Assembly (NCBI GenBank): GCA_032718475.1 | Contig: JAUCBJ010007326.1 | Span: 1 to 44,142, forward strand | Direction of reading: 5' to 3' | DNA length: 44,142 nucleotides | Origin: Nemertoderma westbladi | Taxonomy: Eukaryota; Animalia; Xenacoelomorpha | Shown: positions 1,751-25,001 of the stretch, piece by piece | How the letters are laid out: every line of letters starts with the position of its first letter | Numbering within the stretch: position 1 is the stretch's first letter | The notes under the pieces: model-generated | The model's input: the letters and a program-made list of their open reading frames with translations, nothing else | What the model was told of the DNA's origin: nothing | Databases searched by the model: none | Made by a program: the position numbers and the translations under genes

Positions 1751-2362
1751 AATCCATTACATGCTAGATAATTATTTCTTGTAAAATAGTTAGATACCTT
1801 CCTGGTATTGACCCTATCATGTATTTATGGTTTGATAATTTTGTTTAGGTATCCTCTGCTTTTTTTATATGTTGACTGTTTAATGTTTTGCCTGTGTTAG
1901 TGTTCCTAAGCATAGTATTGTTTATTATATTGGTGTGCAGTTCGGAGCCGCATCTAATCATGTGAGGCATTATGGGAGAAAAGAGGGTCTCTGTCAAATA
2001 ATGAAGCAGAGATACCTTTCTTTGGTCAAGGTTGGTATGGTAGGTAATATTTATAGGTAGGTACCTGTGACAACATGTGTCCACCCAGGACAAATGTTCG
2101 GAAAGTCGACAATACTAGCAAAATCTCTAATGATAGCTTATGGTATTTTTTTGTAATTACTTCTTCCTACACTATCGTCACTAATCTTCAACCGTACCAG
2201 TTATCAGGAGGCGTTAAAATATCCCAATTCAAATAGTTACTGTTTGGCCGGTCAAAATGACTACCAATCAGTTATTGAATTAGTTGCTTCTATGTTAGTA
2301 ATAAAGCCATAAGATACTGCCATTTCAAGCCATTTCAAAATTTCCAGAACATTAATTATTAA

Positions 2363-2813
2363 CCCTTTGCGTACCAACACTTAATAAAGGCGGCACACTG
2401 CCGCCTTTTTTTGCAAATAATTCAGGACAATGCTCATAAAGGTGGCAGTGTGCCGCCTTTATATAATTATAACTTCACCCCCAGGGCGGCAGAGTGCCGC
2501 CTTTACATATATTATCCTGACCCCCAGGGTGGCACAGGGTGCCGCCTTTTTTAAAAATGCTCTTAAACTTTCTTATAACTATTGGGACGGAAAAATGGAG
2601 TATATATTCGTGTTGGGCAGGAAAAACTGGTCTAGAAAAGTTAATTTAATATTGCTTGAATGGATATTGGTTTGAGGGCATTTTAAAATACATAATTTAT
2701 GCAATTTAATTTCAATTTTGCCAAAAATTTTGTTACAAAAAATTAAGGCAGCAGTGAAAGCTACATTATATATTTAATATAGAGAACATACCCGGGGGTA
2801 AACGCCACGCTTG
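2363..2813. mobile_element. Left end of a piggyBac-like non-autonomous element (also at 40363-40811)
   Basis: TTAA|CCCTTTGCGTACC start, GGCGGCACACTGCCGCC hairpin and repeated GTGCCGCCTTT subterminal motifs. No matching right end was found. Confidence 0.45.
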
Positions 2814-3614
2814 GTGGGATAAATACCCAGTCAAAAATCCACATGCGATACGCATGCGGGTGACGCACCAAAACCGCATGCGTAGCGCATGCGCGTATGT
2901 CCGGTCGAAAAAGTGCGATACGCATGCAGACCGCATGTGTGTCCGCATGCGGACCGCATGTGTGTCCGAATATAGTCTGCATGCGGACCGCGTGTGTGTC
3001 CGAATGTGGTCCGCATGCGGACAACAAGTGTGTCCATATGCAGAACTACAAATATCCACACGCAAAACCCTTACCGCACAGGTCCATGCCCATTTCGCAC
3101 TCCTACTGCCAATTTGCGTCGAGTCACATCTTAAAAAGGTCGCATATATTATATATAGTCTAATATATGTCTGCTCATTTCTCAGTCGGTCTGTTTGGTA
3201 AAACTCCACTGTATGAATGTCATACATACAGTGTATCAACACGCACTTGTTACGTTTTATAGGATGAAGGGCCTTATGCAATTGAAAATATTGTGCAGCT
3301 CGAAGGCTGACTAAGTCTAACGTTTTGACTAATAACTCGAGTTTAAGAAAATATATGAGAAAGCTGCTTGCAGATTTGAAATCTCTATTAAAATCGGCGC
3401 ATGCACATGATAGGATTGGAAATTTGTTTGACAATTTCCAAAATAGGGGGGTGCTGTGCTATATTCCCACCCCCGTGTTGAGTGTTCCTTGGCGCTGATC
3501 TTGATTGGTTGGGAAGGCCGCAAATTGCCGCTAAAGATGTCCAAATGAAATTTTGAATAATAATTCAAGCACAGAGTGATACATTAACACTTCGCATTCG
3601 CACCATATTGTGTT

Positions 3615-3812
3615 GGGTCTAAACTCTACACCGACAACCATTATTAAAGCGAATTAATAATATTATTTATTAATTGAGGGAAAGGAACAGGTTACAGTGG
3701 AAGGTTATTCTAAAAAAACAATAAACGAGTCACAAACTCAGGTTACATTTTCATATTTGCTGTTGTCGGCAGTGGTTGTCGGCTGTCGGATATCGGCGTA
3801 GTGTTTAAACCC
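3615..3812. mobile_element. Small MITE with ~20 bp imperfect TIRs
   Basis: GGGTCTAAACTCTACACCGA ... TCGGCGTAGTGTTTAAACCC; ACCATATTGT occurs close to both ends. Confidence 0.5.
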
Positions 3813-5075
3813 TACCATATTGTAGTTTGTTAGAGAGCGTTATATACCTGTTAATGAATCAAAGCCTCAAATGTGCAGTAATAATTTGAACTCAAAATGA
3901 GCGACGGGTAAGGGAGGGGGTGGTGGGTCTATCGACACAAATTGCACCTGGACGAAGAAATAATGAAGTTAATGGGAATCGAACGAATACAATGGCAATA
4001 TCTTATAACCAAAACATAATAAGTAACAGGTCTTTCAATTATTGCTCGTTATAAAAACAAGTTACAAACAAAAATGTTACAAAATAGTTTTATTAGGATT
4101 AGGAACTTGAACAAAATACTCCAAACAAAACATTTTTATTTTAACCTTATTTAATCAGAACTGTACACTCGAATTCGCTTTCGTCGCTTGATCATGTCTT
4201 TTTTAGATATTAGTGTAATCTTCCTTTTCCTTCCCTTAATAATTTCCTCGATGCCTCCGTCATCACGCCCTCCCTCTCCAGCCTCCGTCTGACTGTCTGA
4301 GCGCCACCACTACGTCCTCCCTCTCCAGCCTCCTTCTGCTAGGCTACGCTAGGCTGTCTGTTCTGTATGTCTGTCATTGACATCTCACCTTCCTCAGTTC
4401 AGCAGTACCTGCTTTCAGTCCGGTATCTTCTGTCTTCCAGTCTTCGGCGTAGCGTACATCTGCTGATCTGTCTCTGTCTGTACATTGCACATTGCAGCAT
4501 TGTGCAGAATACGCCGAGTTGCCGAGCCACGAGCCAGTCAGGCAGCAGGCAGCGTATTTACTTACATGGCTTCCGACTGTCCGAGTAAATGCAAAAATAC
4601 GCAGCGTATCTTCCCTTCTGCCGTCCGCGTAAATTCGGCTGTTCCGAGAAATTCCAGTCTGGCCTACCGGTAGGTAGCGGTGCCGCGCTACCGGCAGACC
4701 GGGTAGGCCTATTTTCAGATTTTATTATTTTGCATGTTAGTTTTACCTGATGACAGGTCAGCCACCAGCCGGTACCATTACATGCAGACATGTGCTTTAC
4801 TGCAGTACTGCATTAGGGCATTACCTGGATTGGCCTACAACAATATCAGAATACAGGAATAGGGCTGTAGGGACTGAGGGAGCAGATAGCTTACTGCATA
4901 CTGCTGTACTGCAGTACTGGTAAATTTGACCTAGCTCAGGAGAAGCTAGAGGTAAAATAGCTGGCAGCCTGATTTTCCCGCCAAAACCATGATTTGTGTA
5001 GAAGACAACCAAATCCTTAATTTAAAAATCCTGAATTTCCATTGGCAGATAGGCTAATTACGATTTTTCTTAGAA

Positions 5076-6330
5076 GTGAAGGAGGCTGCTCCTGTGTTGA
5101 TTTATTATCAACCATCACCATCCCTTCTTATTAATGATAATTCAACCTCGTATACAGGTTTTTATGATTTTAAAAATGGCGACTATACTGCTTTCAGTGC
5201 TTACATTAAGAATAGTAATATTATTACCAGGTATGAAAGTTGTGTTACGGTAGACGATTTTTATGAGACTTTTTCCTCAGTACTTAAGGAAGGCATAGAC
5301 AAATTTGTCCCTTTCAAACCTTTTAAACAACGCAAAAAGTATTACCCGCTTTTTGTTAGACGCCTTCAGAGGGCGAAGAAATTACTGTGGAGGAAACGAC
5401 ATAGAGAGAATGGGCGACAAGAATATTATCGTGTGGCAAAGGCTGCAGCCTCTGCAGCTCACCGCGCTACCTGCATCAAAGAGACTGAAATCCTAAACTC
5501 GGGTAACCCTGCTTTAATTTATAAATATATAAATTCAAAGAGAAAATCCACCTTGGGTATTGGCCCTTTAAAATTCAAAGGTGATACGGTAGTGGATGAT
5601 GCGACAAAGGCCCGTATATTTAACGAGGTGCTAACCCAAAATTTTACAGTTGATAACAATGTAAAGCATCAATATACCCAGTAAAGTGCATAGTAGTATT
5701 AATTTGTCGACTATTAATTTTAGCCCGGTAAATGTGTTAACTTTTTTGAATAAGTTGCCCAATAAGAAAAGTGGGACCCCTGACAACCTACCGAGTATTT
5801 TATTTCATCGTTTATCAGTGTGCTTGGCTAAACCATTATCTGTTATATTTAAACTCTCTTTTGAGACACACACACTTCCATCTATTTGGCTTACTGCTAC
5901 CATTATTCCTATCTTTAAAAATGGTGATCCTTGCGACCCCTTTAACTATAGACCAATATCATTAACTTGCATCGCATGCAAAATTATGGAAATGTGTGTC
6001 AAAAATGATTTATTATCCTATTTGCTATTGAATAAATTGATCAATAAGGCACAACATGGTTTCTTGTGCCGTAGGTCTACCAATACACAATTATTGGAGT
6101 GTGTTACAGATTGGTATAATATGGTTGATAATAGGCAAAATATCGATATAATTTATATCGATTTCGCCAAAGCCTTTGATTCCGTTGTGCACAGCAAATT
6201 ATTAATTAAACTGAGAGCTTATGGCATAGCTGATGACTTGTTATTGTGGCTTTCAGCCCTTCTGTCAAATAGGACACAGCGTGTTGTTGTCGGTAAATAT
6301 TGCTCAGATTTTGCACCAGTTACCTCCGGT
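5076..6330 (+). pseudogene. CR1-clade LINE ORF2 fragment (linker and N-terminal RT), frameshifted and 3'-truncated
   Basis: Motifs PIFKNGD, NYRPISLT, QHGF, YIDFAKAFDSV and RTQRVVV; ends at VTSG just before the expected VPQGS; frameshift near 5684. Confidence 0.92.
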
Positions 6331-8236
6331 ACAATATTATGGTGCAGGTTAACTGGCAGAATAACGTCATACAAGAGGCTGACTGAATTATAAAATTGAA
6401 TTACGCATCCAATCCTTGCGAGAACTATTCCGTAATTCAATTTCGAACGAAAATTAATAAAACGAAATAAATGATATTTAATAATAATTATGGTAGATTT
6501 ATGATATTAAGGCGAATTATATCACTTTTAAAATTTATAAAAATTTGAATCACGCATCCAATCCGCATGCGTATCGCATGCACAAGTCCGCACTTCAATA
6601 TTGCACCTAAATTAATAAAATGCAATAAATGACATTATATTTGAATAATTATGGTAGATTCATGATTTTAACATGAATTATATCATTTTTTAAAATTTCT
6701 AAAAAATGTTTAAAATTTATAAAAAATTGAATTCCGCATCCAATCCACATCCCGCATGCCCTACGCATGTGGATCGCATGCGTCTTTTTGACTGGGTATT
6801 TCTCCATTTGACGCAACACCGCCGCGGCCGCTATGAGGGAGGTGAATACCGCGGCCGCTCCTAAAGCCGCAGGCCATCGCTAACTATATAGGTTAACTTG
6901 GGATTCTGGGGGACTTTTCGATGAAGGAACAGACCAAATTTTTTTATTTTCTCACCAGGGGAGCGGCTCGGAATTCTAAGATATTAGCAACTCTAACATT
7001 ATTAAATCTAACCCTTCGACGGACACGGCGGACAAAAATCCGTCATTTTTTCGACAATTTTAAAATTTTTTTGAAAGGCGCTCTACAGTGGCTCGAAAAA
7101 ACCCTAGGTTATTGCTTAGCCGACGCCGGGATACGATAGAAGGGATTAATTAGTGAATTCGTTTTTTTTTTCAAAAAAGATTACCACGCCTTTTTTCCGA
7201 AAATGTCCGTCAAAGTTGAAAAAACGGACAAAATGACTTTGCGGGATCCGCTATAACTCGGCTAATATTAATCGTACGGGGACGAAAGTAACGCGGTTGG
7301 AAAGGGGAAGAGTGGTACTACCTTCGTATCGAATGGGGGTAAGATATTTATTAAAATTTCGGGTGGAAAAAGGGGCTGTAAATTTGTACGTTTTTGTCCG
7401 TCTTTTTTGGAAAACTTATTTCCGAAATGTTTAATTCGACAACGCGGGTAGGAATCCACTAATTCTTTTATGAAACTCGTAGAAGACCATTGGGGCTACG
7501 TTCCTATCGAATGGGGGTACAAAAAATATGTCGGCAATAGGGGCCAAAAAGGGCCAGAATTTGTAAAGTAGTTTTTATCGAATAATTTTTTATTTTTAAC
7601 TTTAGTTGGCTAAGGTACATTCTATACAGTCAATATCCATACGGGGAATTCAAATATGCTATCGGTTTTGCTCCAAGGATGATATTAAAAAATGAGGGCC
7701 AAAATTATAATTTCGCGCTTCAAACTTGCTTCGCGGGAAATCGTCTAGCTCGAAAACTACTTAACTTACGGGAGATTTGTTTACACAGATTTATAGTGCG
7801 TTAAATTATCTATCTAACAGCGTTAATCACTGCGCCGGAGGTATTATAAAACTGGGGCGGCAGGCGATCGTGTGAAATATAATATTTATAAAAAGGGACG
7901 AAATTTTTTTTTTTTTTAACAAATCGCTATTCCATTATAATTTAGCGTATTGCGCCAAAAGTACCTGTAAAAAGTATCAAATTAACTCCGCTATCTTTTA
8001 TCTTAACATATATAATTAAAATTACGAATTTTAAGGGTCGAAAAATATCGCGTTATTTTGGCCCTTTTTTTTAATTTTTTTGGGGCCAAAAATAACCCCT
8101 TCTTAAAAGATTAAGAAAAAAATTACGGCAAAGAATATACCAATTTTATTGAATTTGGACCACCAGAACCGAAGTTAGAGCGATTTTAGTGAAAAAATAA
8201 AAATAATTTTTTTTGCAAAAAAATTAAGAATGGTCA

Positions 8237-8309
8237 GGTCAATATTGGATTTCGAACCCGCGAACTTAGGTTTCATTAACGTGATTGATAACCACTAGAC
8301 TATGTGACC
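8237..8309 (-). pseudogene. tRNA-like sequence (pseudo-tRNA or SINE head)
   Basis: Minus strand GGTCACATAGTCTAGTGG (A box) ... GGGTTCGAAATCC (B box-like) ... TGACC; 73 nt with paired ends, but the anticodon stem does not pair. Confidence 0.5.
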
Positions 8310-9769
8310 AAGAGAATTTGAAATTTTCGAGTGACTATTTTTAAACATAAATAACTTCGGTTCTACAGGGCCGTTTAATCTGAAACTTTTTTCATTGGAT
8401 AGAGGATAGATTGTAGTGTGTGAAATAGGATAAAACTTGGGAAAAGACTTATGTGCACTTAGTGCAAAATGCACTTAAATAGTGAACATTTTTTCGATAT
8501 TTCAAACACTGTTATTTCCAGTTCTATTCATCGTAGAATGTTATTTTTTGGATTAAAATGTAGTTTGGAATGATTTCTAACTATAATCGTAACATTTGTT
8601 TAACTTTTTATGTCTATAAAGTGACTTAAAAATGTCCATGAATATGGTCCAAAATCGCAAATCCAGATTTATTAAATTGGATTTTTGACACTTTTAGCGA
8701 CTGACACTTGATCATACACCATCGTAGATCGGTAGAGGATAAACATAAGTTTGTTAAATAAGAGCCACCATTACGATCTGCTAAAATGCATTTGTACAAA
8801 TAAGTGTGCAAAAGTGCAAATTTTTTAATAAGGTCAAATTATATAGTATTGGGTTCTTTTCTTTGCAGATACTTTATTTTCATATTAATATGTTGTTTGA
8901 ACCTTACTGAGCGCATTAGGGGATATGCGTACAAATAACCGGCCCTTATGAGGCTTCGATTGGGTAAATTAATAAAACATAAGGTTGTATAGTATAATAT
9001 TCTAAAAACCAGTGTGATATTAAATGCACTTTAAATAATAAATAGAAATCAAATAACAATTGGACCACACAATTAAAAACTCGCACAATTTTGTACTTAT
9101 TATATCGCTTCAAATTAATTCAACAGTGGATATTTGGGGGAAGGGGGAAGTTACAGTCTGCATTCGGGGGAAGTTTGGTGAACTGCATTTATGCAGTGAA
9201 TCCAAACTTCCCCCTTTGATATATCATATACTTAAGACATGCTAGGGTGACGGGGAAATATTTGTTACTGTCACATTTTGCTTCCATTTATCCTATCCTT
9301 TATTATTACCCCAGTCAGATAAGATATAATAAATCAGTAAAAACTAAACTAAACTGTCTTTCATGCAAACAAATTTCTAACTAAAGACGGGTGAATGACC
9401 ATGACCATGGAAATAATTTTAAATATAATTGTATATCAACTATTTGGGGAGGCTTCCAAGTTAAACCCGAAAACAATTACTTTGTTACATATATAGTAAA
9501 TAACGTTGTATGTTCTTCTTCCTCTCATAATAAAATATAAATGAAATATCTCAGATAGCTATGCCCTGTAACATTTCACAACCAAAATATTTAAGTGTGA
9601 AAAGTGTAGGCCTACCACACTCCGCCCAAACAACCGCAAACGCATAGCCAACAAATTTAACAAAAGGTTACATACATGTTGGGTTCATGACGAGATGAGT
9701 GAAAATTGATCGCGTAATATAAAGTAAAAAATTAAGAGACGGGCTGGCTCTCCTCCACTTTCTTACCTA

Positions 9770-10345
9770 ATGGATATGTTGTTGTAATAATCTAATATTG
9801 GGGCAGCTTTCTCTCGTTTTTATATATATATAATATATATATGTACAAATGTCAAAGCATCCAAATAAGGGGCACAGCATAGTAGTTTTCGACCAGCCTT
9901 TAGAGCTATTTCGTCTATGTGTATGTTGAATGACTAAGGTTGTGAATATCACCCCCAAAAGTTTAATACTCTGGACCACATTAATAGAAAGGTAGCCCAA
10001 CTTGAGTGAAAGTGGTGTTACATCTGATTGCTTATTTAACCTGCTGGTTAAGACGCGGATTATTTTGCTCAAAAACGACTTTCCATTTTTCCCCCCACAG
10101 ATTTATTTAGTGCAAATCCTCCTGCATCTGGGTGAGAGATAGATCTCAGTTGGCTTCGCTAAGAATTAAGCAGTATAATGAAAAATCATCCGCATATATT
10201 GCCATTGGATTTGAAAGGTCTGTCACCAGATCATCAATATACACCAGGAAGAATGTTGGACCCAGGAGTTATTGCAGGGGAACAGAAGCATTAATACATC
10301 TCGTTGGGAGCATTTGCCCTCAACAACCACTCAAATACTACAGTT
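9770..10345 (-). pseudogene. Degenerate CR1-group LINE RT fragment
   Basis: Minus-strand translation INASVPLQ*LLGPTFFLVYIDDL...IYADD, then IKLLGVIF further on. Confidence 0.85.
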
Positions 10346-10355
10346 GAGTATATAT

Positions 10356-12102
10356 TTGACTACTATCAAGCCTAAATAAATTACAGTACATGCAGACTCC
10401 GAAATGGTTAGTTAGTATGCGTTCTAACCTAGTAGTACGACTTATTCTTTCGGGGGGGGGGGGGGGGGGGGATTTACCTTACAGTACTGGATGCCCCTAC
10501 TTTCCTAACCCGCACTTTATTGGACATACACTCTACATGCACTGCAATCCGTTCAGACCTATCAACAGTCAGACAACAGTCCAGCCTACAAATTATCTGT
10601 ACGATCTGAGCAGGCTTACACGTCTTCTGCTCAATATTAGCCTACAGATAAATAAAACTGACAGAAATAAGTAAACCATACAAAGGAATAAGGGGTGATC
10701 AATCCCTAATCCCCTAACAGCCTACAATATACAATATATCACAATCGAAATAATACTAGTACCTTTACTGCTGTAAGTACCGGTTCCGGTGGTTAGGTAG
10801 TTAGGCCTACAGGTTACCGGTCGACCGATACTTTTCAACTTTATTGCTTACTGCAATAAAGAAGCTATAACTGTTATTGTTCTTACCAGAACAATAGTCA
10901 ACTATATTTATTGCCTACACTGCAATCAGAGTTAATAACTGTTATTGTTCGCGCTTTTAGACCTTTAGCAGTTTAACCCGCTAATTTTAGGTGTCTTTTA
11001 GTTTGTAAATCGACTTTAGCCTATGACGAGTATTTGATACACTACATTAGCCGAAGCCAGCCTATGCGCGACCATTCACCCGCTGGATATACCCGGGAGA
11101 CTGGATTCGGGGGCTCTGACCTTATTGCGGTGTAGGCCTACTGTATTATTCGATTGATCGTTAATATATAATCTCTGACAAATATTATTCACTTTCGGGA
11201 AATATTAACAGTTCCCTTTGGACGTGGCGCTCTAAATATATAAACAGAGCTATGACTTACACTAAACACAACGGGATGGCTAATGATTCACGTATAAGGC
11301 GCATTCTTTAGGAGATGCTTTGTTATCTGTCACAGTCATGCACACTACCGGTACCGCACAATACTGCACACTGATCTGCCGACCTTCACTAATTTTAGTC
11401 ACATATAAAGAGAACAGCAATTGACCCATGTAGTACCTATGAAATAGCATTAGATTCACTCCAAAACCAATATCATATAAGTCACAATTGCTATATGTAA
11501 CCGGTCTCTTACCTTCAGTATATCAAGAAGATGGGGTTTTATGATTATTTCTCGATATTATCCAAATATAACAATTTTCCATCAACAGATACAATTAATA
11601 ACCGACAGTAAATAGCAGTAAAATAATGCGGTGAAAGATATGTATAGCATTTGACAGGCAGGATAACAGTTATACGTTCCGGTAATCAAAGCCGTTCTAA
11701 TGTTTTGGCTAAAGTCTGAAACAGAATAATTCCATAGCCGATGTTCATGGCATCTGTAAAACCAACACACTGAAACCTGTGCGCTGTTGTATGCAGCTTT
11801 CAACACAAAGAGAAATAGCTCTCATTGGCAGAACTCCAGATTCTATAGGTTCCACGAACGTCTAAATGCCAAACCTCCCTAGCCTTTGCGGCCCATAGCC
11901 AACACAAGGGTAAATCGCTCTGATTGGTCGATCATTGTTCTGATTGGTTAATCGAACAGAACGGCCATACGTACAGCAAATCGGCCAATCAGCCAGCAGA
12001 ATGCATCACTCGAGCAAGGCAGTTTTAGAGTATTTGAGCGCATTGAGGGAAAACTGGATTGCGGAGAAAAAGGGCCAGTTACATCCCGCAAAAGCTTTTA
12101 CA
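10356..12102 (-). mobile_element. Truncated, diverged sister of the BEL/Pao element: full LTR (12102-10946) plus ~590 bp of leader
   Basis: Reverse complement begins TGTAAAAGCTTTTGCG and ends AAAAGCGCGAACA. 10356-11830 aligns by eye to the reverse complement of 13060-14433; the U3-proximal part is more diverged. Confidence 0.9.
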
Positions 12103-12779
12103 CTACTAGTCACTCAATTTTGGTCCAAATTTCTTGAAACCAACTTTTTTGGACTCAGCGTGATCGACTCTACAAAAGTTATCTTGTAGAATTTTTAATT
12201 AGCCATTTTTATTTTAATTAATTAAATTAATTAATTAATTATCATATTTTTAATTAAAATTGGCTAATTAGAAAAAATGGTAATATTTATAAAAATTCCA
12301 TAAGATAACTTTTAAAGAGCTTCCAAAGCTCGTTCGAATGAGCCATAAGGAAGAAAATTGGTTAAAAAATGACGGAGGAGTAGTAATTTGAAAATGAAAA
12401 ATGTCATTCCGAGAAAATGCCCTTCAAAGTTTAAACCGTCCCGCCAAAATTGGCTGTCTGCATTCTGGTTGGTTAATTATTTCCGGCACGAAGGATGCAC
12501 ACCAACGAGCTAAAATGTTCATTACGGGGTTTTTCGGGGTCGCTGATCTCATTTCCGATGTCAGTTTTAAATTTTGGTGGATTCTAGTCTGTCTGTCTGT
12601 CTGTCGGTCTTCTGTCTTTCTTACAATTTGACGGACAGACCGTCATATGGAAAAACAGTGATAACTCGAGAACTGAAAGAGGTCTCACTAAGCGGTTTTT
12701 AGATTTGTAATCCTTATTAAATTCTGCACTTGATGAAATAAAGAAACAACAATTTGAAAATTTTACCTGAGGGGGGTAT

Positions 12780-13918
12780 TGTAAAAGCTTTTGCGTAATT
12801 AGCCGGTTATTTTCCCCGTAAAGTACTCTGTAGTTGGTTTACTGGGCATAAAAAGGCCGTGTCCTTACTGTACTGGTGTTTTAGAGGACATAAAAGTCAT
12901 TTCTTCTGTATGTGTACTTTAGAGGACATAATCCGCAATTTCGTGACGCAATAAGCCGGATACTCTTGAAAACAGTGTGGCTACCATGACGACGGCTAAC
13001 AGCTGATATTGCCACGTCGAACATTTCTTTGTTCTTTGTTCTCTCTTTGTTCGGTCGACCAATCAGAGCGTTTTTTGTCTCTGTGTTGGAGGTTGGATAC
13101 AGAAACTCAGTAATTCAGTGTATATGTTTTTGCCCAGAGCCTAAGAACACCGGCTTTTGGCACCTCCGTGTTTCAGTCTTTAGCTTAACATTAGTAGGCT
13201 TAATTATAGAACGTATATCTGTTATCTAAACATATCATGCATATCTTACTTAACATTACTGCTTTTGCTGTCGGTTATTCATTATATTTGTTGATGGAAG
13301 ATTATATTTGGAATACTGATCAATAGTCAGACACCCCAATCTTCTTGATATACTAAAGGTTAGAGAGACCGGTTACATATAAACGATTGCGACTTATGTT
13401 AAGTGGTGTGAAGTGAATCTAATGCTATTTTATAGGCCCTACATGTATTGTCTGTTATTCTCTTTGTATGTGACTAAAATTAGTGAAGGTCGGCAGATTG
13501 GTGTGCAGCATTGTGCAGCATTGTGTATGATTGTGACTGATAACAAAGCATCTCCTAAAGAATGCGCCATATACGTGAATCTATAGCCATCTCATTGCGT
13601 CTGGTTTAAGTCATAACTCTGTTTACATATTTAGAGCGCCACGTCCTAAAGGAACTGTTAATATTTCCCGAAAGTGAATAATATTTGTCAGAGATTATAT
13701 ATTGCGATCAGTCGAATAATACAGTAGGCTTACACCATCAATCATTAAGCTTCCGAATTCAGTCTCCCGGGTATATCCAGCGGGTGAATGATTGCGCATA
13801 GACTGGCTTCGGCTAATGTAGTGTATCAAATACTCGTCATAGGCTAAAGACTATCTATCATCTAAAAGACATCCTAATTTGGCAGGTTAAACTGTCAAAG
13901 GTCTTAAAAGCGCAAACA
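12780..13918 (+). repeat. 5' LTR (1139 bp)
   Basis: TGTAAAAGC...GCGCAAACA; differs from the 3' LTR by about 11 substitutions and one 10-bp duplication (TTGTGCAGCA at 13511), counted by eye. Confidence 0.96.
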
Positions 13919-13929
13919 ATAACAGATAT
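13919..13929 (+). promoter_or_regulatory. Candidate self-priming primer-binding site
   Basis: ATAACAGATAT abuts the LTR, lacks the TGG of a tRNA PBS, and is the exact reverse complement of ATATCTGTTAT at 13215-13225. Confidence 0.7.
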
Positions 13930-14202
13930 TGCTTCTGGATTGCGGCGTAAGCAATCAAGTCGAAAGTACCGGTCGACCGGTAACCTGTACGGCCTGACTG
14001 CCTGATCCCACTCCCGAACCGGTACTTACAGTACAGGTACAGCAGTATTATTCGATTTGATAATTATATACCGGTAGGCCTTAATAATTAATCAGGGACT
14101 GGCCGCCCTGGTTTTTTATTGAGATTTTACTTGTTTCTGTCAGGTTTTATTTATTTGTAGGCCAGTATTGAGCAGAAGGCGTGTAAGCCTGCTCAGATTG
14201 TA

Positions 14203-14780
14203 CAGATAATTTGTAGGCTGGACTGTTGTCTGACTGTTGTTAGGTCTGAACGGATTGCAGTGTGTGTAGAGCGTCTGTCCGATAAAGTGCTGGTTAGGAA
14301 ATGTAGGGGCTTCCAGTGCTGTGAGGTAAATCCCCCAGTGAAAGAATAAGTCGTACTACTAGGTTAGAACGCATACTAACTAATCATTTCGGAGTCTGCA
14401 TGTCCTGTAGTTTATTTAGGCTTGATAGTAGTCTGCCAGCGTTTGGTCTGTACTTTGTTTGTGTAGTCTGTACGGGTAGCGTATAATTTTATTTAGATAA
14501 TTTGTAGGCTGGATAGTTGTCTGGCTGTTGTTGGGTTTGAGGAAATTTCGGTGTGTGTAGAGCATCTGTCCGATAAAGTGCTAGTTGGGAACGTAGGGGC
14601 TTCAAGTGCTGTGAGGTAAACCCCCTGTGAAAGAATAAGTCGTACTACTAGGTTAGAACGCATACTAACTAATCATTTCGGAGTCTGCATATACCGTAGT
14701 TTGTTTAGGCTTGATAGTAGTCTGTCAGTATTTGGTCTGCATTTTGTTTGAGTAGTTTGTACGCGTAGCGTAATATTTAT
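14203..14780 (+). repeat. Two ~291 bp tandem repeats in the retrotransposon leader
   Basis: AGATAATTTGTAGGCTGGA...GAAAGAATAAGTCGTACTACTAGGTTAGAACGCATAC... starts at ~14203 and again at ~14494. Confidence 0.9.
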
Positions 14781-16118
14781 TATTCAGAGTTTATGCGATT
14801 ATTCGCAACATTCATTCCCCAAGTTTATTCCTACAGTAATTGTGTTTGTTATACATACCGTTATAGTTAAACTAACCCCGGTACTACATCAGGGCTGCTC
14901 GGCGTAGGTAAAGACTGGAGATTTTATGCTTTGGTCACTCCGGCAGATACCGTGGTTCTTTTAGCTGTTCAAGTATTTTTAACTACTAATTATTTGTTGT
15001 ACAAGTACTTGTACCTAATTTAGGGTTTAGTGTACTGTACTTTCCGAAGGTGATTAGTGTGTAGGCAGTATATTTGTGTTGTAAAGTGGTTAATAGGCAC
15101 GTTGGTTCTGGTAGACCGCGGTAATTAATCTCTAGGTAGGAACACTCCGTGATACATAACGTAGTACCTATAGCGATACGGTTATAGGTCGTCAGGCGGT
15201 GGTATTTTCCTATCTGGACAACGCAGTATATTTACTACTACTTATTATTTTCAAATACCGTAGTAACCTGTCCGTTGTAATAACCAGATATTCTAACCCT
15301 TTGTTAGGCTGGTTAGTAGACTTCTTGTAAAATTACCCTAAAAATTCGTATTTGTGTATTTGTAATTAAATTTTTGTGTTTATTTAGAGATTGTAATCTC
15401 AACCCGAATTGTACGTAATTTGTAGTATTAAGTAACTTAGGTAAATTAGAATTATTTGTTTTAGTGTCTAACAAGTAGCACTCCACTGAGAGCGCACAGC
15501 TTATGTGTAGTGACTCCCCCAGAAATAATAACATTTATTTCAAACATTGACAAAACCCATTAAACGGGTATATATATATTATAAATCAACTCAAACGATT
15601 TATAAATAGTAGGCCTGCCATACAACAATTAGGTCTCAATATCAGTTGGACTACTGCTTAAATAATGGTAATAAAGTAAGTTAAAGTAACCAAGTAACCC
15701 TTAAAATTCAGAAATTCAATTATTCTAAAATAATTGATATACCGGTATTTACAATAGGCTTATTATCTTTATTTCTATAAATTTAGGCTGAAATTATACC
15801 GGTATTCTGTAATTAATTCTAGTCTGTAATTATACTTATATATACACATTATAAGTGTAAGCTGTATACCGGTATTCACGATAGGCCTATTATATATATA
15901 AATTTAGGCTGAAATCATACCGGTATTCTGTAATTAATTCTAGTTACTAATAATACTTATATATACTATAAGCATACCGGTATTCTAATATTATATATAT
16001 ATCACGCTACACTGAGTAGCAGTATCGGTAATTAATTACTAGGCTAGCAGTTAATGCTGAATTACTAGACTTGCTTAGACTGTAATATAGCAGTAGGCAT
16101 TCAACTGTGTAAACAAAC

Positions 16119-17613
16119 ATGTCTGATACTAAGCAGAACCTGTCAGACAGTTTATTAGATGTAACTATCTGCGACTCAGATAAGGGTGTAGAACCGTCTA
16201 CACCTAAGTTCAGTTCACCTCCCACTGTGAGGAAGGTCATCCCTCCAGTAGTAATAACAGAACCTAGGCTGGTCCAACATCGTAGGTCTATCATAGGCAC
16301 TCGAGCTCAGGTCAAGCGGGACCAAGAAGCAGCGGAACAGCAACAACCCGCGAGCCAAGAACTTATTTCTCAGCGGCCCGACAGCTCCAGTAGTGAGGAT
16401 ACTGTAGAGCTGACACCCGAGCGCGGAGCAAAGATGACGGATGCGGTTTATTCGGATCCCCTTCTCATCCTGCCTGCAGCCGTACTCACTAGGATATTGA
16501 TCGCGGTGGAAGAACACCAGATCGATTGGGCGAGAAGTCAGCGATCAACTAAAGATAGTTATGCGGGATACACAAGGGAAGAACTGAAGTCTATTGTCGA
16601 GTCGCAATGGAACTTCCCCGGACCCGGACTCCCGTTTGATTTATCAGAAGCTGCCTGGGAAGACATACACCGGATGGGAGTAACCAAGGAAACCATCGAT
16701 CCAGCTGTGTGGAAGAGGTCCGCAGCCGGATACGCACAGGGATTCTTCAGCTCTATGGAGCGAGTAGAAAGAACAACTGTTTCAACAACCCCAAGGACCT
16801 CAAGAGCAGGGACAACTGCTTTATCAAGTTAGAGAAAGAATTCTACGAATCAGGCTAATCTTATCGGCCTTTGAAGAGGCTTCTAAAAGAAGACAAGACA
16901 CGTCGTTGCAAGTTGCCGTAAAGACTTGGTTTCAGCGGGTGAGTCTCCAGGTTCAAGGAACAGCTCAGTGGAAAGCTCAGCTGGAGGAGCGCTCAACCCA
17001 TGGAGAATCAACAGACGCTACTTTTTCCCAAGTGGAAAGTGAAGCGACGGCAGAGAAACCGCATAAGAGGGATGCCATTGACATCTATCTGTCAGACTAT
17101 CAGCGTTTTTTAGGAGATGAAGAGTTGAGGAGAAGGTTAGATGGACTTAGCCCTAATAGTGAAGGAGCCCAGAGTGTGTTGGACGCAATTGATGTGGATA
17201 GGATAGCTGCGAACCAAGCTAAATTTGATGAAAGTATCCGCATCGCTAAGGTTCAAGAAGAACAAGTAAAGAAAAAACGTATAGAAGATAGAAAGACAGC
17301 AGCAGCGGCAGTGGCAGCGGCAGAAGCGGAAAGAAAAGCGGCAGAAGTGGATAGAAAAGCGGCAGAGGCAGCGGCAGAGGCAAAAGCGGCAGCGGCAGAG
17401 GCAAAAGCGGCAGCTGCAGCAGTAGAAGCCAAAAGAAAGGCGGCCGAAGCGGAAAGAAAAGTGGCAGCAGCAGAAGCGGAAAGAAAGGCGGCCGAAGCGG
17501 AAAGAAAAATAGCAGTGGCAGAAGCAGAACGGAGGGCATCTGAAGAGACAACCCAACTAGAGTTGGAAAATCTTCAAGAGAGACAAGACAACTTTAATAA
17601 ACTTTCCCAGTGT
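16119..17613 (+). CDS. gag: ORF1 / N-terminal Gag region with Ala-Glu-Lys coiled coil; one +1 frameshift near 16765
   Basis: ORF 16119-16832 joins the frame of 16906-17628 via EQLFQQ...RILRIRLILSAFEE if one base is removed. The helical region followed by AAEAERK repeats resembles BEL Gag N-termini. End placed at the predicted 5' splice site. Confidence 0.6.
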
Positions 17614-18633
17614 CTTTTCCCAGGGTAGCACTATTGGAATGGAGGTGTTACATCGGAATGGGCAGGTTCTGATGATTCTGTTGGTACTACTATTGGAATG
17701 GAGGTGGCACCCGGAATATCGGCTGCAAGGAGGGGTTGGTGTTGTAGTGTGGTCCGAGTGAATGATACTCTGGATTCTGTGGTGTGTGTGGACGATCAGT
17801 GGCAGTTTGCTTGAGCTTTCTGTTGCTGTGGGTACGTGGTATACGTGAGTGTATGTATGGGCACTGCGAGTGAGTATGGGAACCCTTCCCGGTTGGTTCA
17901 GTCGCCGCTGGTATTAGTAGGACCATATCTTTACTGCGCCCCAGCATACTTTGTGCACACTAAGTTATTTTGCCCTGACGGCAAAATAAGGTACTCTCGA
18001 CTCTTTTGACAGTCGATACAATTTTGTCCCCTCTGATTTTGTCCCCGATTTTGTCTTTCCCGATTATGTCCTCTGTGTGTGCATGGTATGTGTCAGATTT
18101 TGTGTTTACCGTAGTGTACTTGATATTGTGAACATCTGTTGAGTACACGTGTACAGTGACTGGTAAGTGGTTACTTGTTCCTAGCTTTCGAGCTAGTCAG
18201 TATTGTTTGCGGAACCGACTTCCCCTCAATACTGCCGGCGAGGCGGGTGAAAACGTGTCAATATTCCATGTTGGGTAGCGCAAGCCCACTTGGGACAAGA
18301 CCGTCGGTTTGGCTCAAGGGCGACCTTGATGCTCGATCGCTATCGACTGGTCCACCCGCCGGTTGACTCTCTGAGTTGGCTCAATGTACAGTCAGGCCAC
18401 AGTAAGTTGACAGTAGCCGACCATCTGGCTACACTGACGAGCTGTGCCGGTGTGATCGGGGGATTGAAAAGTGAACCCGGGAAGCATCGGGCTACCCTCC
18501 GGCCCGGTCTGATAAAAACATCAGTCGGACTGGCCCCAAGGGTAGTGGAAAAGCGTCCGCCTCGTGGGTGCGCCTCGGGGAGGAGCCCAGAAGGACGTAA
18601 GCGATACATCATCTGAGGAAGGTGATACCACCG
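17614..18633 (+). ncRNA. Group I self-splicing intron (ID-like core at 18242-18394; boundaries predicted)
   Basis: P3 GGCGGGTG (18242-49)/CACCCGCC (18353-60); P4 ACG[T]GTC/GACCGT; P5 with GCAA loop; P6 CGGTT/GATCG with TCAAGG-GCGA-CCTTGA; P7 T[C]GACTG (18343-49)/CAGTCA (18389-94); P8 GGTTGACTC/GAGTTGGCT; J8/7 CAATGTA; P1 with U17613-G17628 wobble; P10 CAGGGT/ATCCTG; terminal CCG at 18633. Confidence 0.82.
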
Positions 18634-18680
18634 ATCCTGAAGGCGGAGGAAATCGATCTCGCCTAAGCAGACGTAAAAGA

Positions 18681-21600
18681 ATGTCCCACCGTCAGAAATT
18701 GCCTGATTTGCCCCCAGCTGTTAGAAGGCAACTAAATAACACAGATTTAGGTAGTACAGAACCCACAGACCAAATAATTAAAATAAAAAGACTCCCTACT
18801 ATAGTAGATGAGCCTGAAATAATTAGGCCTGTTCTTGAAATCACCCCTTCGGTGATAGAGACACCTGTGCTCCCTGAACCTACCTCTAAATTCCCTCTGC
18901 ACAGCACTAAGCTACCTGTGCCCAGTAGAACAGCCCATGAGACAGTTCAGGTCCTGGACTCCGAGCGAAATATTCATGATTTGTCGCCCGTTGTCCCTCG
19001 TCCGCCCGCTACAACGTTGGCGAATCCCGCTTCGGCGGTCGAATGGGTGGATGAGAGACGATGGGGGATGGATCTCCTGCTCGGACAGATGCAGGAGACC
19101 GTTCAGCAATTCAAGGGCACAGTAAGGGAAAGTAGGTTAGAGTTGCAAGAAGTGCAGCAAAGTATCGCGCTAGAACGCGATAAATTAGTAAATACACAAA
19201 GGGGTATACCACCACCCCCTATAACAATGTGTCAACCTGTTAGGTCTGAAGTATCTCATGCGCAAGGTGTGGAGCCTACACGCATCTATACTGTTAGTGT
19301 TAGTGAAGTAGAAACTCCTATAGTAAACCCTATTAAGGGTAATTATAAACCTGTTGACAGTGATATTCCCTATAGACTTGATAATAATCCGAGAAATTTA
19401 TATACCAATAACTCGATATTAAATAATACGATGGCCCAAGAAAGTTTTACGCGTCAAATGGCTAGAACCGAAGCCCGTCAAGTGGTAAGGATGGGAGAGA
19501 TCGTCAAGTTCAATGGAGATGAGATGAAATGGTTACCTTTTAATGAATATTACAAAGATAACATACAGAACTTCGTGTTATCTAACGGAGAAAAGCTTAG
19601 ATTCCTCATCGAGTGCTTGGAGGGATCTCCCAAGTTAATGGCGTTAAAGTTTATTGGACATCCAGATGGATTAAGACAAGTTTGGGATACAATAAACATC
19701 AGGTATGGTAATAGGACTAACATAGCTAGGTATTTGTATGCAAAATTAATGGCGCCCCGAAAGTTTCTTAGCAGCGGGATTATAGAGTTTTCCGACGAAA
19801 TTCAGGAGATCTGTAGACAGCTAGATTGGTTAGGTAAGTCTCATGAATACCAGAATTCTATGGTTGTAGGAGCCTTAGCATCAACTCTGCCAAAGGGTGG
19901 AGTAGGTACACGCTGGGATAAGAAAGTGTTATATATGATGGAACAACAACAACGAGACCCTACCATGGCTGATCTCATGTCATTCTTGGATGGAGAAGTG
20001 AAATTACAGCTCCTAAAACTGTCCAGAGAGAAGACACCGGAAAACAAGGTAAGTGAAAAACCCGTCTCTAGGAGAAAGGTAACACCAGTGTGTTATACAG
20101 ACGACGGCGAAAGCCAGACTTCTCAAGGAGAGGATAGCGGGAAAGACACTGACAGATCTTATTATGTCAATAAAATGCCTAAAGATCAGGTAAGTAAATT
20201 CAAGTCTCGAACCAATGACAGGAGAGAACAGGTAAGAAAAACTCCTCCTACGTCTCCTAAGAGAATTCAAGTAAGAAAGCCCGAAGAAAGAACGAGTGTG
20301 CACAACGTTACTCAAAGTAAGGTAAGTAACATCAAACCAAAATGTGTGCTGTGCGACGGGCCCCACCGTTTGAATATGTGTGATAAATTCCTAAAGAAAT
20401 CATTAAAGGATAGATGTGAAGTCATGTGGGATAAGCGGTTGTGTTATAATTGCCTCAGACGAGGACACCAACGGCGAACCTGTTACTCCGACGCAAGGTG
20501 TGCAAAGTGCGGCGCAAAACATCATATCTTGTTGCACACGGAATTCGAACGAAACAGCCCGAGTCAGGTAAGTGAGTCCGAACTACATGTCCAATTCAGT
20601 GATGTGAACGACACTGACCAATATTCTGAGATGGAAGGATTCTATACGGACGAATTCTCCGACGAAAACGAATCCTGTTACCTGACAAATACCGCAGTGT
20701 ATCGAGCACTTACGTATGAAAAGGACACCGACAGCGAGCTCCCCCCAACTACTTCTGATCGACAACCATCTTGGAAAGCGCCACCTTCCAATGTAGGAAT
20801 CCGAGAATTTCCTGTAGTACAGGTAAGGGTCCACGGATCTAAAAGGAGTTATATAGTTAACGCCCTCCTTGACCCCGGTAGCACTGGAACATTCATCGAC
20901 AAAGAACTAGCCGAAGACATCTTTGCTGGACAACCCAAGTTCCGAACTAAGTTAAACATGTCAGGAATTATGCATGTTTGGAAATCTACAGTAATAGCGG
21001 ATTATTATGTAGGTGCGTTGTCCACCCCCCAGGATGAACTAGGAGAACACAGCATAAGGTCAGTAAAAATGGTGGCGATAAAGAACTTCGGTACCAGCCA
21101 ATTAGAGCCTTATAACTGGGATGAGGACGATTTCACCCAGCAGTTTGATATACCTAGATTCAACACCGATTACCCTGGAGTGCCAATACTCATCGGTCAA
21201 AATGCGCATGAAGCGCTCGAGACATTGGAGAAACGGCCTGCTCAACCGCAACCCCTACAAGCTTATGCGGGAAGAACTAGAGTGGGTTGGTACTTTACTG
21301 GCCCTTCCCGTAGAACTCTCATGGAAAGATTACCGAAAGACCAGGTATGTCAAGTGAGAGAATGGGAAGTCGAGAGCAGTGAGTTAGACGATCCAACTGA
21401 GGGAACACCATACTCCTCAGATAATGACGATATCAACTCCAATGTAGATCAATGGAGACATTGTCCCGAGACGATCAATCTAGCCGACATCGCTTCCAGA
21501 GGAGCAACTCCTCAAGAACTGATAGATACTCCAGCGTGGTTAGGTGGACCCGACTTCCTAAGTAAAGAAGATGAATGGCCTCCTCATCTTACCCCGGCTA

Positions 21601-21773
21601 AGATTAGACAGGCCAAGGGAGCGGGGAAAGTAACACAACAACTCAATCGCCCAGCTGGTCGTTTATGTTTACTGGAAAGAAACCGAAAACTGTCCGGAAA
21701 CTATGGAAGGCAAGATACTCTTCCCACGACCACCTCCCTAATCCAACAAATATCTAGGGACTCCATAACGTAA
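18681..21773 (+). CDS. gag-pro: BEL/Pao Gag (capsid, zinc knuckles) - aspartic protease, fused in frame to short RNase H-end and integrase C-terminal remnants
   Basis: Frame open from 18564, first ATG at 18681. KFNGDEMKWLPF...KLRFLIECLEG capsid region; CVLCDGPH..C, CYNCLRRGH..C, CAKCGAKHHILLH; ALLDPGS; RTRVGW; WRHCPETINLADIASRG...WLGGPDFL; RPAGRLCLLE. No RT or DDE core. Confidence 0.92.
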   Translation: MSHRQKLPDLPPAVRRQLNNTDLGSTEPTDQIIKIKRLPTIVDEPEIIRPVLEITPSVIETPVLPEPTSKFPLHSTKLPVPSRTAHETVQVLDSERNIHDLSPVVPRPPATTLANPASAVEWVDERRWGMDLLLGQMQETVQQFKGTVRESRLELQEVQQSIALERDKLVNTQRGIPPPPITMCQPVRSEVSHAQGVEPTRIYTVSVSEVETPIVNPIKGNYKPVDSDIPYRLDNNPRNLYTNNSILNNTMAQESFTRQMARTEARQVVRMGEIVKFNGDEMKWLPFNEYYKDNIQNFVLSNGEKLRFLIECLEGSPKLMALKFIGHPDGLRQVWDTINIRYGNRTNIARYLYAKLMAPRKFLSSGIIEFSDEIQEICRQLDWLGKSHEYQNSMVVGALASTLPKGGVGTRWDKKVLYMMEQQQRDPTMADLMSFLDGEVKLQLLKLSREKTPENKVSEKPVSRRKVTPVCYTDDGESQTSQGEDSGKDTDRSYYVNKMPKDQVSKFKSRTNDRREQVRKTPPTSPKRIQVRKPEERTSVHNVTQSKVSNIKPKCVLCDGPHRLNMCDKFLKKSLKDRCEVMWDKRLCYNCLRRGHQRRTCYSDARCAKCGAKHHILLHTEFERNSPSQVSESELHVQFSDVNDTDQYSEMEGFYTDEFSDENESCYLTNTAVYRALTYEKDTDSELPPTTSDRQPSWKAPPSNVGIREFPVVQVRVHGSKRSYIVNALLDPGSTGTFIDKELAEDIFAGQPKFRTKLNMSGIMHVWKSTVIADYYVGALSTPQDELGEHSIRSVKMVAIKNFGTSQLEPYNWDEDDFTQQFDIPRFNTDYPGVPILIGQNAHEALETLEKRPAQPQPLQAYAGRTRVGWYFTGPSRRTLMERLPKDQVCQVREWEVESSELDDPTEGTPYSSDNDDINSNVDQWRHCPETINLADIASRGATPQELIDTPAWLGGPDFLSKEDEWPPHLTPAKIRQAKGAGKVTQQLNRPAGRLCLLERNRKLSGNYGRQDTLPTTTSLIQQISRDSIT

Positions 21774-22309
21774 CAACATACGGAGTGGGTGTGTGACTAT
21801 ATTATTTTATATTTATTTTTATTATTTTATATTATGTATGTATTATTATGTAATTTTATTATAATCGTTTTAATTAATTTTATTTAGTAGCATGTTATTT
21901 TAGCGATTATTTAGTAGATTAGTGCAATATATTCGCGTTTATTACGTAATTACTTATATTATATATTTAGTGCGACGGCGAGAAATAATTATTTTTCTCT
22001 TTCCTTACTGTCCGTATTACATTATAAATACGTAACTACAGTAAGATGAAATGTCCGTACTTATTAAAGTACAATAAAGCCACTACTATATTCAAGTATT
22101 ATTGGTAGGCAGAGTATTAGGAATGCAAAGTTCAGATCCTCGTGTCTCGGCTAAACCAAGCTCTGGGTAGACCACGACTTGCCTCTTCTCACTGACATTG
22201 CTTCGTGCGATATTGCTCTCATACCGTATATTAAATAATACATATAGTAGCGTGATGTCCCTTTAACAGTAGCATATAACGCAAAATAAATCTGTTAAAC
22301 CCTTTGACC

Positions 22310-22585
22310 ATCTGCAATTCTAGTCGATTAAGATATCGCGGCACCCACCGATATTCTTGAAAGACAAAATTCTAGAATCAGTGGTTAACGTCCCCAGACA
22401 AGTTCTGGAATAAACTGGTGCCCATCCTAAATATTAATTATTAATATTTACAAAATCTGTCAAATTTTAGATCCTTTAACATTCTAGTCGATTAAGATAT
22501 CGTAGCATTTACCGATACTCTTAAAAAGACAAATTCATAGAATCAAGGATCATATGTCCCCAGATATGCTCTGGAATCAAATTGT
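22310..22585 (+). repeat. Two ~165 bp-spaced imperfect repeats in the 3' region of the element
   Basis: TTCTAGTCGATTAAGATATCG...AAGACAAA...TAGAATCA...GTCCCCAGA...CTGGAAT at ~22318 and ~22482. Confidence 0.75.
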
Positions 22586-23387
22586 GTCAATTTAACTATC
22601 AAATAATAAAATTTCAGGGAATAAATTTAAATTCATACTTTAATGAATTTAATAAATTGCAATTTTATACAATTTATAACATTCCCAAAATTCCATTAAT
22701 TAATAGATCATGGGAGCGGAGATTCACTATATTAAGTGTATTGTGTGTGAGAATCTCCAATGTATAGTCAATAGCCGATAAAATTCATAAAATCATATAT
22801 AGAGAGGATATTGACAATTAAAGAATTACTATTAAATAGCATCCCAGATCTGTATGCATGAGAATTACCCTAATTCTACCGCTAGCTTTCCATAATGTCA
22901 CCATGGCAACAACCACGCTAGAATTAGAAGTGAGTTAAAAGAACAATAAAGGGCTTGCGCATTGAATAGCATACGGAATAAATAGCACACCACTAGTATC
23001 CAAGGATACATAATAACAACGTGACATTCTGGAAGGCACTTGACTAACGGACAAATGACCCGAATGTGTGATAGAATGTGTACCATTTGTGACTGTTACG
23101 TGGAATTTGTGCGTTTGTAGGTGAATGTTACTACTAAGGTGTGTTTACAGTAGCGAGTCGCAATTGTGAAAGTAACCCTAACTCTCCAGTAAGAACCTGA
23201 AGTATATCTAAGCCTTTGGGACGGACGGTGGAGTGGCTCGTGCTGGTTGTTGTAGTCGTTGTGCAGCTACGACGTTGGCGATAGGCACATCGGCGAAAGT
23301 ACACCAGCGCTGAGGATCTCGCACTGTCCGGGGGCAGAGAGGGGTAGGCAGCGACGCCCGCTCGCCTAAATATAAACTCATTATAAT

Positions 23388-24983
23388 ATGGATAAACTTA
23401 TATAGCAGATATGATTGAGTTGATAGAAGATGATCTTGGTATCACGGAACGATATACTCTACCTTTATAAGCGTTTGTTGATAGCTTGATACGCGGCAAC
23501 GCTGGTCCAACTACTACGGAGGACGATGGTCGTTATATCTAACCGCCAATGTCCCGGGAGCAACTTGCGTGTGGGTTAGACTGTAGAAAATTCACCGCTC
23601 GCTATACGCATCGTAATGGTACGTATATGGACTTCTTAACTACTGGTCATCCTATCGACCTACACGATACGAACGATATAGACACCAAAGGGAAATGGTT
23701 TATTTAAATATCATACCCAGCGGAAGCGGAACGATAAACTGAGACTCGAACACGAAAATTCTATTCGAAACCGACTCGAAAGTGCAGATGTCGAAGAGCC
23801 GGACAAACGCAGCGACTCCACCAAATACCTGGAATTCTTGAGAGAAACCTATCTCGATATTACCAGTCAACAGAATCTAGAAACTCGATATCCTCAAGGT
23901 ATACATCATGACCGCATGGTAGAACTCAAACGGCTCTATTCCACTATGATGTATCTTACCGCCGATCGATCGCTACCTGTTGTACCGGATAGCTTCGAAC
24001 GGATGGAGGAATATTGTAAGCTGGAGAAAGATCACTCGCGTTTCCCCTACAAGACGTGCGTTTTTGGTATTATTGCGATGAATGCCCAAGACCCAACCAA
24101 CAAACGGAAAGACATAAACATCCGCGGAGACGTTGCTTTAAACACGGTTTTACTCGCTATACTTACGGGAGTTTCGAGCGAAACTTGTTCGATGTATCAC
24201 CTACGCTCGTTCGACTCAGACGATCCTTAAATAAACCAATGATCAGAGTTTCGGAATACTCGATCAGAACTCCTCATTCCCTAGTGAGACTTCAGACTCT
24301 TGATCCTATTAGTATGACGGATCCTCCCGAGCTGTACTCACTGCTCAAAGATCTAGTGTTACCTGAACAATTAGTCGGTGGCACCCCAGTTGTGGGCTTC
24401 CTAGATATTAGCCCATTCTACCTAGCCGGATTGGGACGCGGACATTTAATATCGCCGTTTAACCCTTACCATCGTCCCGGCTTAACACGATATAACCTGT
24501 CACCAAAGTGGCGGAGAACGTTGTACCAAACGAGTTAAACGCTATTCTACAAAGATCAGAAAGGAAACCTGCGTTTGTTCAGATAAACGTAAGTTGTAAC
24601 AGCAAGTCCAAGCGATAAACGAATTGTCTTTATCTCAGTTCGATTGTGAAATCCAGAATCTCTAAGAAGATATCGAACTTAGACAACCCCATTCTCTGCG
24701 AGAGTTTTTGGATGAACGTATCCAGCTACGAGCGGAGGAAAATCAGCTCGAGGAGAAGCATATCGAAACTGCGGATACCCCGACCATAATCCTACACCTT
24801 CTGATGCAATCATATTGCACCCTTCACCCAGGATTTATAGCCCTCCTAGTAAAGTGGCTCGCCCCAAAGAGAAAAGGACTCTTGCTAGCCTCAAAAAACT
24901 GCGTAAACGCCGTCTGCTTAAGAAAGACTAACTGTTTAGAGTATCTTTATATTTTAGAAACTGTGATTTGTTATATTTTATAG
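23388..24983 (+). pseudogene. Decayed accessory coding region of unknown function before the 3' LTR
   Basis: GC-richer stretch with consecutive or overlapping protein-like frames (from 23388 with stops; ~23720-24230; 24056-24538; 24708-24983). No recognisable domain. Confidence 0.45.
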
Positions 24984-25001
24984 ACTTAAATCCCATTTTC
25001 T

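Follow-up and report, generated by a model that had tools for sequence, protein, structure and literature searches.

The window, by which we mean the whole 44,142-nucleotide stretch of Nemertoderma westbladi DNA analysed here, contains a retroelement of 13.4 kb (12780-26138) flanked by LTRs with TG..CA ends, and on the opposite strand the 5' LTR and leader of a diverged sister element. The main element is laid out as follows:

12775-12779, forward strand: left copy of the target-site duplication GGTAT (right copy at 26139-26143)
12780-13918, forward strand: 5' LTR of 1139 nt, TG..CA
18546-21773, forward strand: frame of 1075 codons with DUF1759 Gag, three CCHC knuckles, aspartic protease and an RNase H remnant
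25002-25009, forward strand: putative PPT, a short purine-rich tract ahead of the 3' LTR
25010-26138, forward strand: 3' LTR of 1129 nt, in which the putative primer recurs at 25445-25455

Because the two LTRs differ by only 11 substitutions and one 10-nt indel, we consider the insertion to be young. The 1075-codon frame matches DUF1759 with an E-value of 5.6e-11, and three CCHC knuckles, a pattern that is a hallmark of BEL/Pao elements, as well as a protease motif could be read in it. HMMER matches of this frame are about 25-35% identical to it; from the best 34 of these matches 14 relatives were domain-scanned, all of which carry DUF1759 or zf-CCHC together with a protease, and 10 of which also carry the Pao domain Peptidase_A17. 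A remnant of RNase H (21432-21581), which comprises about 50 residues from the late part of the domain and at this length has no Pfam match, has counterparts at 34-52% identity in 21 of 23 full-length relatives. When the polyproteins of these 23 relatives were used in a tblastn search, only the Gag-protease part and the 50-residue RNase H piece were matched in 12780-26138, while RT and integrase gave no match. Since these two are absent, we file the element, going by its sequence, as a non-autonomous and atypical BEL/Pao derivative, for which a helper element would therefore be needed. Its description as a BEL/Pao element in the original prediction thus stands for the lineage, as judged from Gag and protease, and has to be narrowed to a non-autonomous member. 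In a tree of the knuckle-protease region the element occupies a long branch (best identity 28%) and is therefore not assigned here to any one of the sub-clades Pao, Sinbad, Dan, Flow, Tas, BEL and Suzu. No relatives of Gag were returned by a word-indexed protein search or by a Gag search of viral contigs, an alignment search with the polyprotein yielded one partial locus in viral contigs, and the LTR pattern of the element had no match in metagenomes.

Two overlapping frames, one of 239 codons and a second of 286 that contains a repeat rich in Ala, Glu and Lys, lie 5' of gag (16113-17628, forward strand); neither matches Pfam, and the first has no homolog in the word-indexed protein search. 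Two more overlapping frames (182 and 172 codons; 23682-24538, forward strand), likewise with no Pfam match, follow the RNase H remnant and precede the 3' LTR, and the non-coding parts of the element contain direct repeats of about 290 nt (14204-14788), 130 nt (15738-16042) and 165 nt (22317-22614). Elsewhere in the window, a unit of about 3.07 kb is present in three tandem copies (29817-39040), which are 97-98% identical to each other and have no Rfam match. Positions 1-10355 and 29155-41353 form an interrupted duplication with blocks that are 93-99% identical; the copy at 1-10355, which stops at the truncation point of the sister element, contains an insert of 7 kb that carries a broken non-LTR RT (5058-6393).

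According to the ICTV profile, replication of BEL/Pao elements is tRNA-primed and poorly understood, the host tRNA (tRNA-Arg or tRNA-Gly) annealing through its 3' end to a complementary site of 18 nt, and the elements encode a full pol (PMC8742986); the original prediction had likewise called the superfamily tRNA-primed. The element shares with the Belpaoviridae (Semotivirus) the DUF1759 Gag, the CCHC knuckles, the protease, an LTR of about 1.1 kb and a short RNase H fragment that may be of Pao type. Unlike the members described in the profile, it has neither the 18-nt tRNA-Arg or tRNA-Gly site nor a full pol, and it is 13.4 kb long. In place of a tRNA site we find a pair of complementary segments:

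13215-13225, forward strand: putative self-primer, complement of the primer site and presumed 5' end of R
13919-13929, forward strand: primer-binding site of non-tRNA type directly 3' of the LTR, predicted to be mostly unpaired

No TGG follows the LTR in the main element or in the sister, ARAGORN predicted no tRNA gene, and Rfam returned nothing at gathering level, its single weak match being attributable to chance. The segment 13919-13929 is the exact reverse complement of 13215-13225 and of 25445-25455, and the flanking positions are mismatched on both sides. The missing TGG-type site and the perfect 11-nt pairing with mismatched edges had both been predicted, and all the predicted coordinates proved correct. 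In dinucleotide shuffles, a perfect complement of at least 11 nt at offset 0 arose in 7 of 5000 cases for each of the two lineages, and with offsets of 0-3 allowed in 24 and 20 of 5000, respectively. A primer spanning a splice junction was also sought in the element's own LTRs at offsets 0-8, and none was better than the contiguous match. For comparison, the published criterion for predicting self-primers, as given in the excerpted text of PMC6317226, is a pairing of at least 10 bp that starts 0-5 nt after the LTR; here each lineage has 11 paired nt that begin at offset 0.

The sister element provides an independent view of the same pair of segments:

10946-12102, reverse strand: sister 5' LTR of 1157 nt, its U3 48-76% identical to that of the main element per 50 nt and the part from the equivalent of 13180 onwards 76-96% identical
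11663-11673, reverse strand: putative self-primer of the sister
10935-10945, reverse strand: first copy of the sister primer-binding site, between the duplexes A and B described below
10866-10877, reverse strand: second copy of the site, a local duplication with a 12-nt complement, predicted to be buried in a hairpin of its own
10358-10934, reverse strand: sister leader of about 590 nt, homologous to 13930-14433 and truncated at about 10355, with no coding part within the window

As predicted, both partners have changed together in the sister: 11673-11663 and the post-LTR segment 10945-10935 are complementary, and the single difference that each 11-mer shows from the main element falls on one and the same pair, 13218:13926, as a compensatory A/T transversion. 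By our own arithmetic, at the 86% identity of the presumed transcribed region, the chance that all 11 pairs survive while one or more of them change on both sides is about 0.004; the main family offers only two lineages for this comparison. The second copy of the sister site (10877-10867) carries the changed letter of the first and is complementary at a twelfth base as well, hinting at a start that may vary by 1 nt. On the reverse strand, the duplication in 10866-10945 takes in a hairpin and the site together with the final bases of the LTR. The sister primer may resemble that of the fission yeast element Tf1, a similarity to which we give no weight. That the match of an AT-rich, near-palindromic motif arose by chance is conceivable in so far as 9 of the 11 bases in the main element are A or T, the sister motif is palindromic, and perfect LTR complements exist for 6 of the 11081 internal 11-mers, which lie in 4 separate places, three of them other than the primer site. 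Given the 7 of 5000 shuffles at the exact position and the compensatory change in addition, coincidence is nevertheless an extremely improbable account.

The original prediction had proposed that complementarity between primer site and LTR be examined across related families. From an alignment of 23 polyproteins we obtained 80 loci in metagenome contigs, of which the 46 with flanking DNA entered an LTR search; 2 were dropped for having less than 150 nt upstream, which left 44 loci from 39 families for a controlled scan. After ..ACA, 12 of the 44 loci, or 10 of the 39 families, have an 11-mer complementary to a GT..AG junction of their own LTR, compared with 8 of 1882 cross-family pairs. The splice filters were picked after a first look at the results and were applied identically in the cross-family control, and as L004 and L012/L013 look related, 9 independent families is the safer count. 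A contiguous, unspliced complement is found in 2 of 39 families against a null of 3.4% and is thus not above chance, so that among relatives the complementarity holds in its junction form and stays at background in its contiguous form. In 9 loci the end of the 5' LTR is set by a 3' copy. Three of these have tRNA-type TGG sites (L024, L028 and L071, in 2 families), three have non-tRNA sites that match a GT..AG junction (L013 with 12 nt, L027 with 15 and L059 with 11), in L002, where the LTR end is uncertain, the complement is contiguous and 11 nt long, and two show nothing; the other families are mostly without type assignment, many because the contig holds no LTR.

The junction-complementary families, in which the post-LTR site matches the LTR only across a predicted exon-exon junction, are L003, L004, L009/L010, L012/L013, L022, L027, L049, L055, L066 and L076, to which L059 may be added; L010 is an LTR-internal-LTR tandem array whose identical repeats lie at 1, 6139 and 12277. 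Their introns measure 76-426 nt, with mostly GTAAG donors and pyrimidine-rich acceptors, and 4-10 nt of the match precede the donor. In 13 picked relatives together with the main element, the segment is 11-15 nt long, ends in AC or AT in all 14 and has C or G as the next base in 13, the AT|C end of the main element being the same as in L027. In 13 of the 14 a pyrimidine-purine step lies at the segment start or at -2 from it, compared with 142 of 20000 random positions when the best pair of shifts is allowed. These observations bear on the idea that the match has no present function and was left behind when reverse transcription switched templates or corrected inverted repeats. The region does rearrange, as the sister leader duplicates the LTR end together with the site, but splice-made matches in relatives cannot come from DNA-level copying of an unspliced LTR. 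The main element, moreover, is a recent mover (11 substitutions and one indel, intact target duplication) with no other primer site, and we regard an origin as a mere by-product as very unlikely.

The RNA around the site was folded from 13215 with a program that forms no pseudoknots, and in a second run the primer and the site were held open. The predicted pairings are:

13792-13797 with 13910-13915, forward strand: duplex A, U5 with the sequence just 5' of the site (p 0.94; sister 0.97; compensatory change at 13793:13914)
13728-13750 with 13931-13952, forward strand: duplex B, U5 with the leader just 3' of the site (p 0.91-0.94; sister 0.8-1.0; compensatory change at 13730:13950)
13759-13761 with 13789-13791, forward strand: branch (compensatory change at 13759:13791)
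13710-13722 with 14045-14057, forward strand: outer duplex (p about 0.9; a similar duplex in the sister)
13878-13899, forward strand: U5 hairpin, in which the sister has one compensatory change and two one-sided changes that keep the pair

In nested folding the primer and the site pair with probability 0, because duplexes formed with U5 surround the site in the two lineages alike, so that any primer-site pairing becomes a pseudoknot; in the main element 13220-13226 pairs instead with 13539-13545 at 0.98. With primer and site held open, separate predictions for the two lineages each gave duplexes A and B. Freeing both strands costs 5.6 kcal/mol in the main element and 4.4 in the sister, and the duplex contributes -10.5 and -10.1 kcal/mol, respectively, values that exclude the loop cost of the pseudoknot. 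When the 111 pairs predicted from 13690 onwards are read in the sister, 78 are unchanged and 9 are gapped; of those changed on one side 10 still pair and 10 are broken, and all 4 that changed on both sides still pair, compared with 0-1 compensatory pairs in six slid controls. Overall, 10 of the 24 changed pairs break in the sister, and 55 pairs are predicted in both lineages. U5 is thus predicted to pair on either side of the site and to display the 11-mer in an open loop, as in the pretzel of Tf1. Both flanking duplexes are found in 2 of 10 self-complementary relatives and at 20 of 123 control positions, which is background, and for this reason we treat the pretzel as supported for the main family and not as a general feature. 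The leader further contains a perfect 16-nt palindrome (13967-13982), nearly kept in the sister, as a candidate dimerisation signal.

As modelled, the flanking duplexes mark a primer site without naming the primer. Stems similar to these are said to occur at retroviral tRNA sites, to judge from the title of a 1998 paper by Lin and Levin. The complementarity could accordingly belong to a regulatory RNA switch that masks the site or sets packaging against translation, with a host tRNA half or another small RNA as the true primer. Priming by half-tRNAs exists in copia lineages (PMC6317226, in excerpt), and the primer segment has its alternative partner at 13539-13545. A host primer, however, would draw the sites towards a few tRNA sequences, as seen in L024, L028 and L071, whereas the two lineages in this one genome have different sites that each fit their own LTR, and the many unrelated sites of the relatives each fit their own LTR junction. 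We therefore judge a switch to be improbable.

For the start of transcription, the following positions upstream of the primer are of interest:

13059-13063, forward strand: CCAAT box, at -156 from the putative primer (-155 in the sister) and 56 nt above TCAGT
13115-13120, forward strand: TCAGT, initiator-like by the initiator consensus and a rival transcription start, conserved at -100 in both lineages

Identity between the lineages ranges from 0.48 to 0.76 per 50 nt before 13180 and from 0.76 to 0.96 between 13180 and the end of the LTR. This step at about 13180 fits a U3/R border near 13215, and the T|A at 13214/15 fits a pyrimidine-purine start. On these grounds we find it marginally favoured that the RNA starts within 2 nt of 13215. 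A form of self-priming that differs in the start site alone, and shares most of its weight with the reading just given, would place the start upstream, at TCAGT near 13117 or at 13175, so that a longer 5' fragment pairs through its last 11 nt only or the primer is cut out on both sides. That the two lineages share a conserved TCAGT at -100 and a CCAAT at -156/-155 would suit it, as would the lack of a TATA box in the LTR near -30 in either lineage, and a match that begins at the cap would leave the spliced relatives with a very short first exon (4-10 nt before the donor). Yet the match ends sharply at 13215, the matches of the relatives cluster at 11-15 nt, and a longer primer, once copied, would tend to lengthen the site; identity is also 0.62-0.72 over 13030-13179 and 0.84 from 13180. 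We hold an upstream start to be possible and rather doubtful. Downstream of the primer, 13359-13436 (about 11512-11437 on the reverse strand in the sister) has the donor-, branch- and acceptor-like motifs of a candidate short intron in both lineages, and the contigs of run X1 contain no joint for it. These contigs, which we did not use as evidence, cover 13165-13220 and fall to zero by 13249, one of them joins 13226 to 13553, and they mostly carry the sister-type C at 13759 and 13793. Among the 40 of 80 differences listed for run X1, none lies within either 11-mer, with 13919-13929 mostly in uncovered bins.

Taken together, the reading that the element uses a stretch of its own RNA to prime minus-strand DNA synthesis in the manner of Tf1, with either form of the start site, appears to us likely. 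This is what the original prediction had proposed, and it is supported by the complementarity, the compensatory change, the flanking duplexes with four more compensatory pairs, and the self-complementary relatives with non-tRNA sites. Complementarity, co-variation and the absence of TGG and of RT are established by the sequence itself, and the steps of priming can be proposed from them. The RNA would begin at or within 2 nt of 13215, U5 is predicted to pair with sequences on both sides of the site and to leave it in an open loop, and the LTR segment 13215-13225 would bind the site there as a pseudoknot. By analogy to Tf1/Tf2, the RT of a helper would cut after 13225 and elongate the freed 3' end over the roughly 690 nt of U5 and R, and the primer would be copied back into the site during plus-strand synthesis. 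If the primer is copied into the site in this way, the pair would therefore stay in step without selection on each change, and the match would end sharply. We also lean towards a wider proposal, namely that self-priming is usual in a large, overlooked part of BEL/Pao and that many primers span an LTR splice junction, with host splicing licensing replication; the main family would then be an intron-free form with a cis signal read in trans by a helper RT.

In Tf1/Tf2 the 5' segment of the RNA anneals, and RT cuts after the primer and extends it (PMC5341516 and PMC4600332, in excerpt), and the site together with two flanking duplexes forms the three-duplex pretzel of Tf1 (excerpts of PMC10085805 and PMC4600332). 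Like Tf1/Tf2 of Schizosaccharomyces pombe, Tj1 and Tosmo1-3 of the Tf1/sushi group, the element has a post-LTR site that pairs with a segment of the LTR, and like the Tf1 pretzel it has two predicted duplexes, which involve the sequence adjacent to the site and LTR sequence 3' of the primer. It differs from Tf1 in the roughly 700 nt between primer and site and in that the start site and cleavage, demonstrated for Tf1, are predicted for the element. Unlike the Tf1/sushi elements, which are Ty3/gypsy chromoviruses, it has BEL/Pao-type proteins and no RT, integrase or chromodomain. Membership of Tf1/sushi was considered and ruled out, the polyprotein not being of the Ty3/gypsy chromovirus type. 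The excerpted text of PMC6317226 has self-priming described for Tf1/sushi and predicted, by the criterion given above, for Tcn1 (gypsy) and for the copia TAR lineage (TAR/Houba/Osr-1, plant), which belong to other superfamilies and hosts. Fungal GalEa copia elements and bivalve TRIMs also have no canonical primer site; in the excerpt of PMC6934838 they have a local hairpin in the inner domain, whereas the site of the element pairs with the LTR instead.

In the literature searched, with subscription papers, Repbase entries and supplements outside its scope, we found no report of self-priming in BEL/Pao. PMC3118150 has no mention of primer, PBS or tRNA, none of PMC554778, PMC6238403 and PMC8556966 contains primer binding, PBS, tRNA or priming, and PMC8220671 and PMC5443660 have a generic mention only; the groups named in the excerpts of PMC6934838, PMC3601003, PMC3286476 and PMC2864245 are other than BEL/Pao. 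What we describe is thus likely a known mechanism in a new variant, a Tf1-like mode working in a superfamily described as tRNA-primed. If this is true, all three LTR superfamilies hold self-priming lineages, and site finders based on tRNAs would misjudge many animal elements as defective. The signature would also predict start sites from the sequence of an element alone, and the main family offers a clean test case, its two natural lineages differing by matched substitutions in the primer pair as well as in four pairs of the predicted structure. The relatives, in turn, suggest a splice-made primer, which would tie retrotransposition to the RNA processing of the host.
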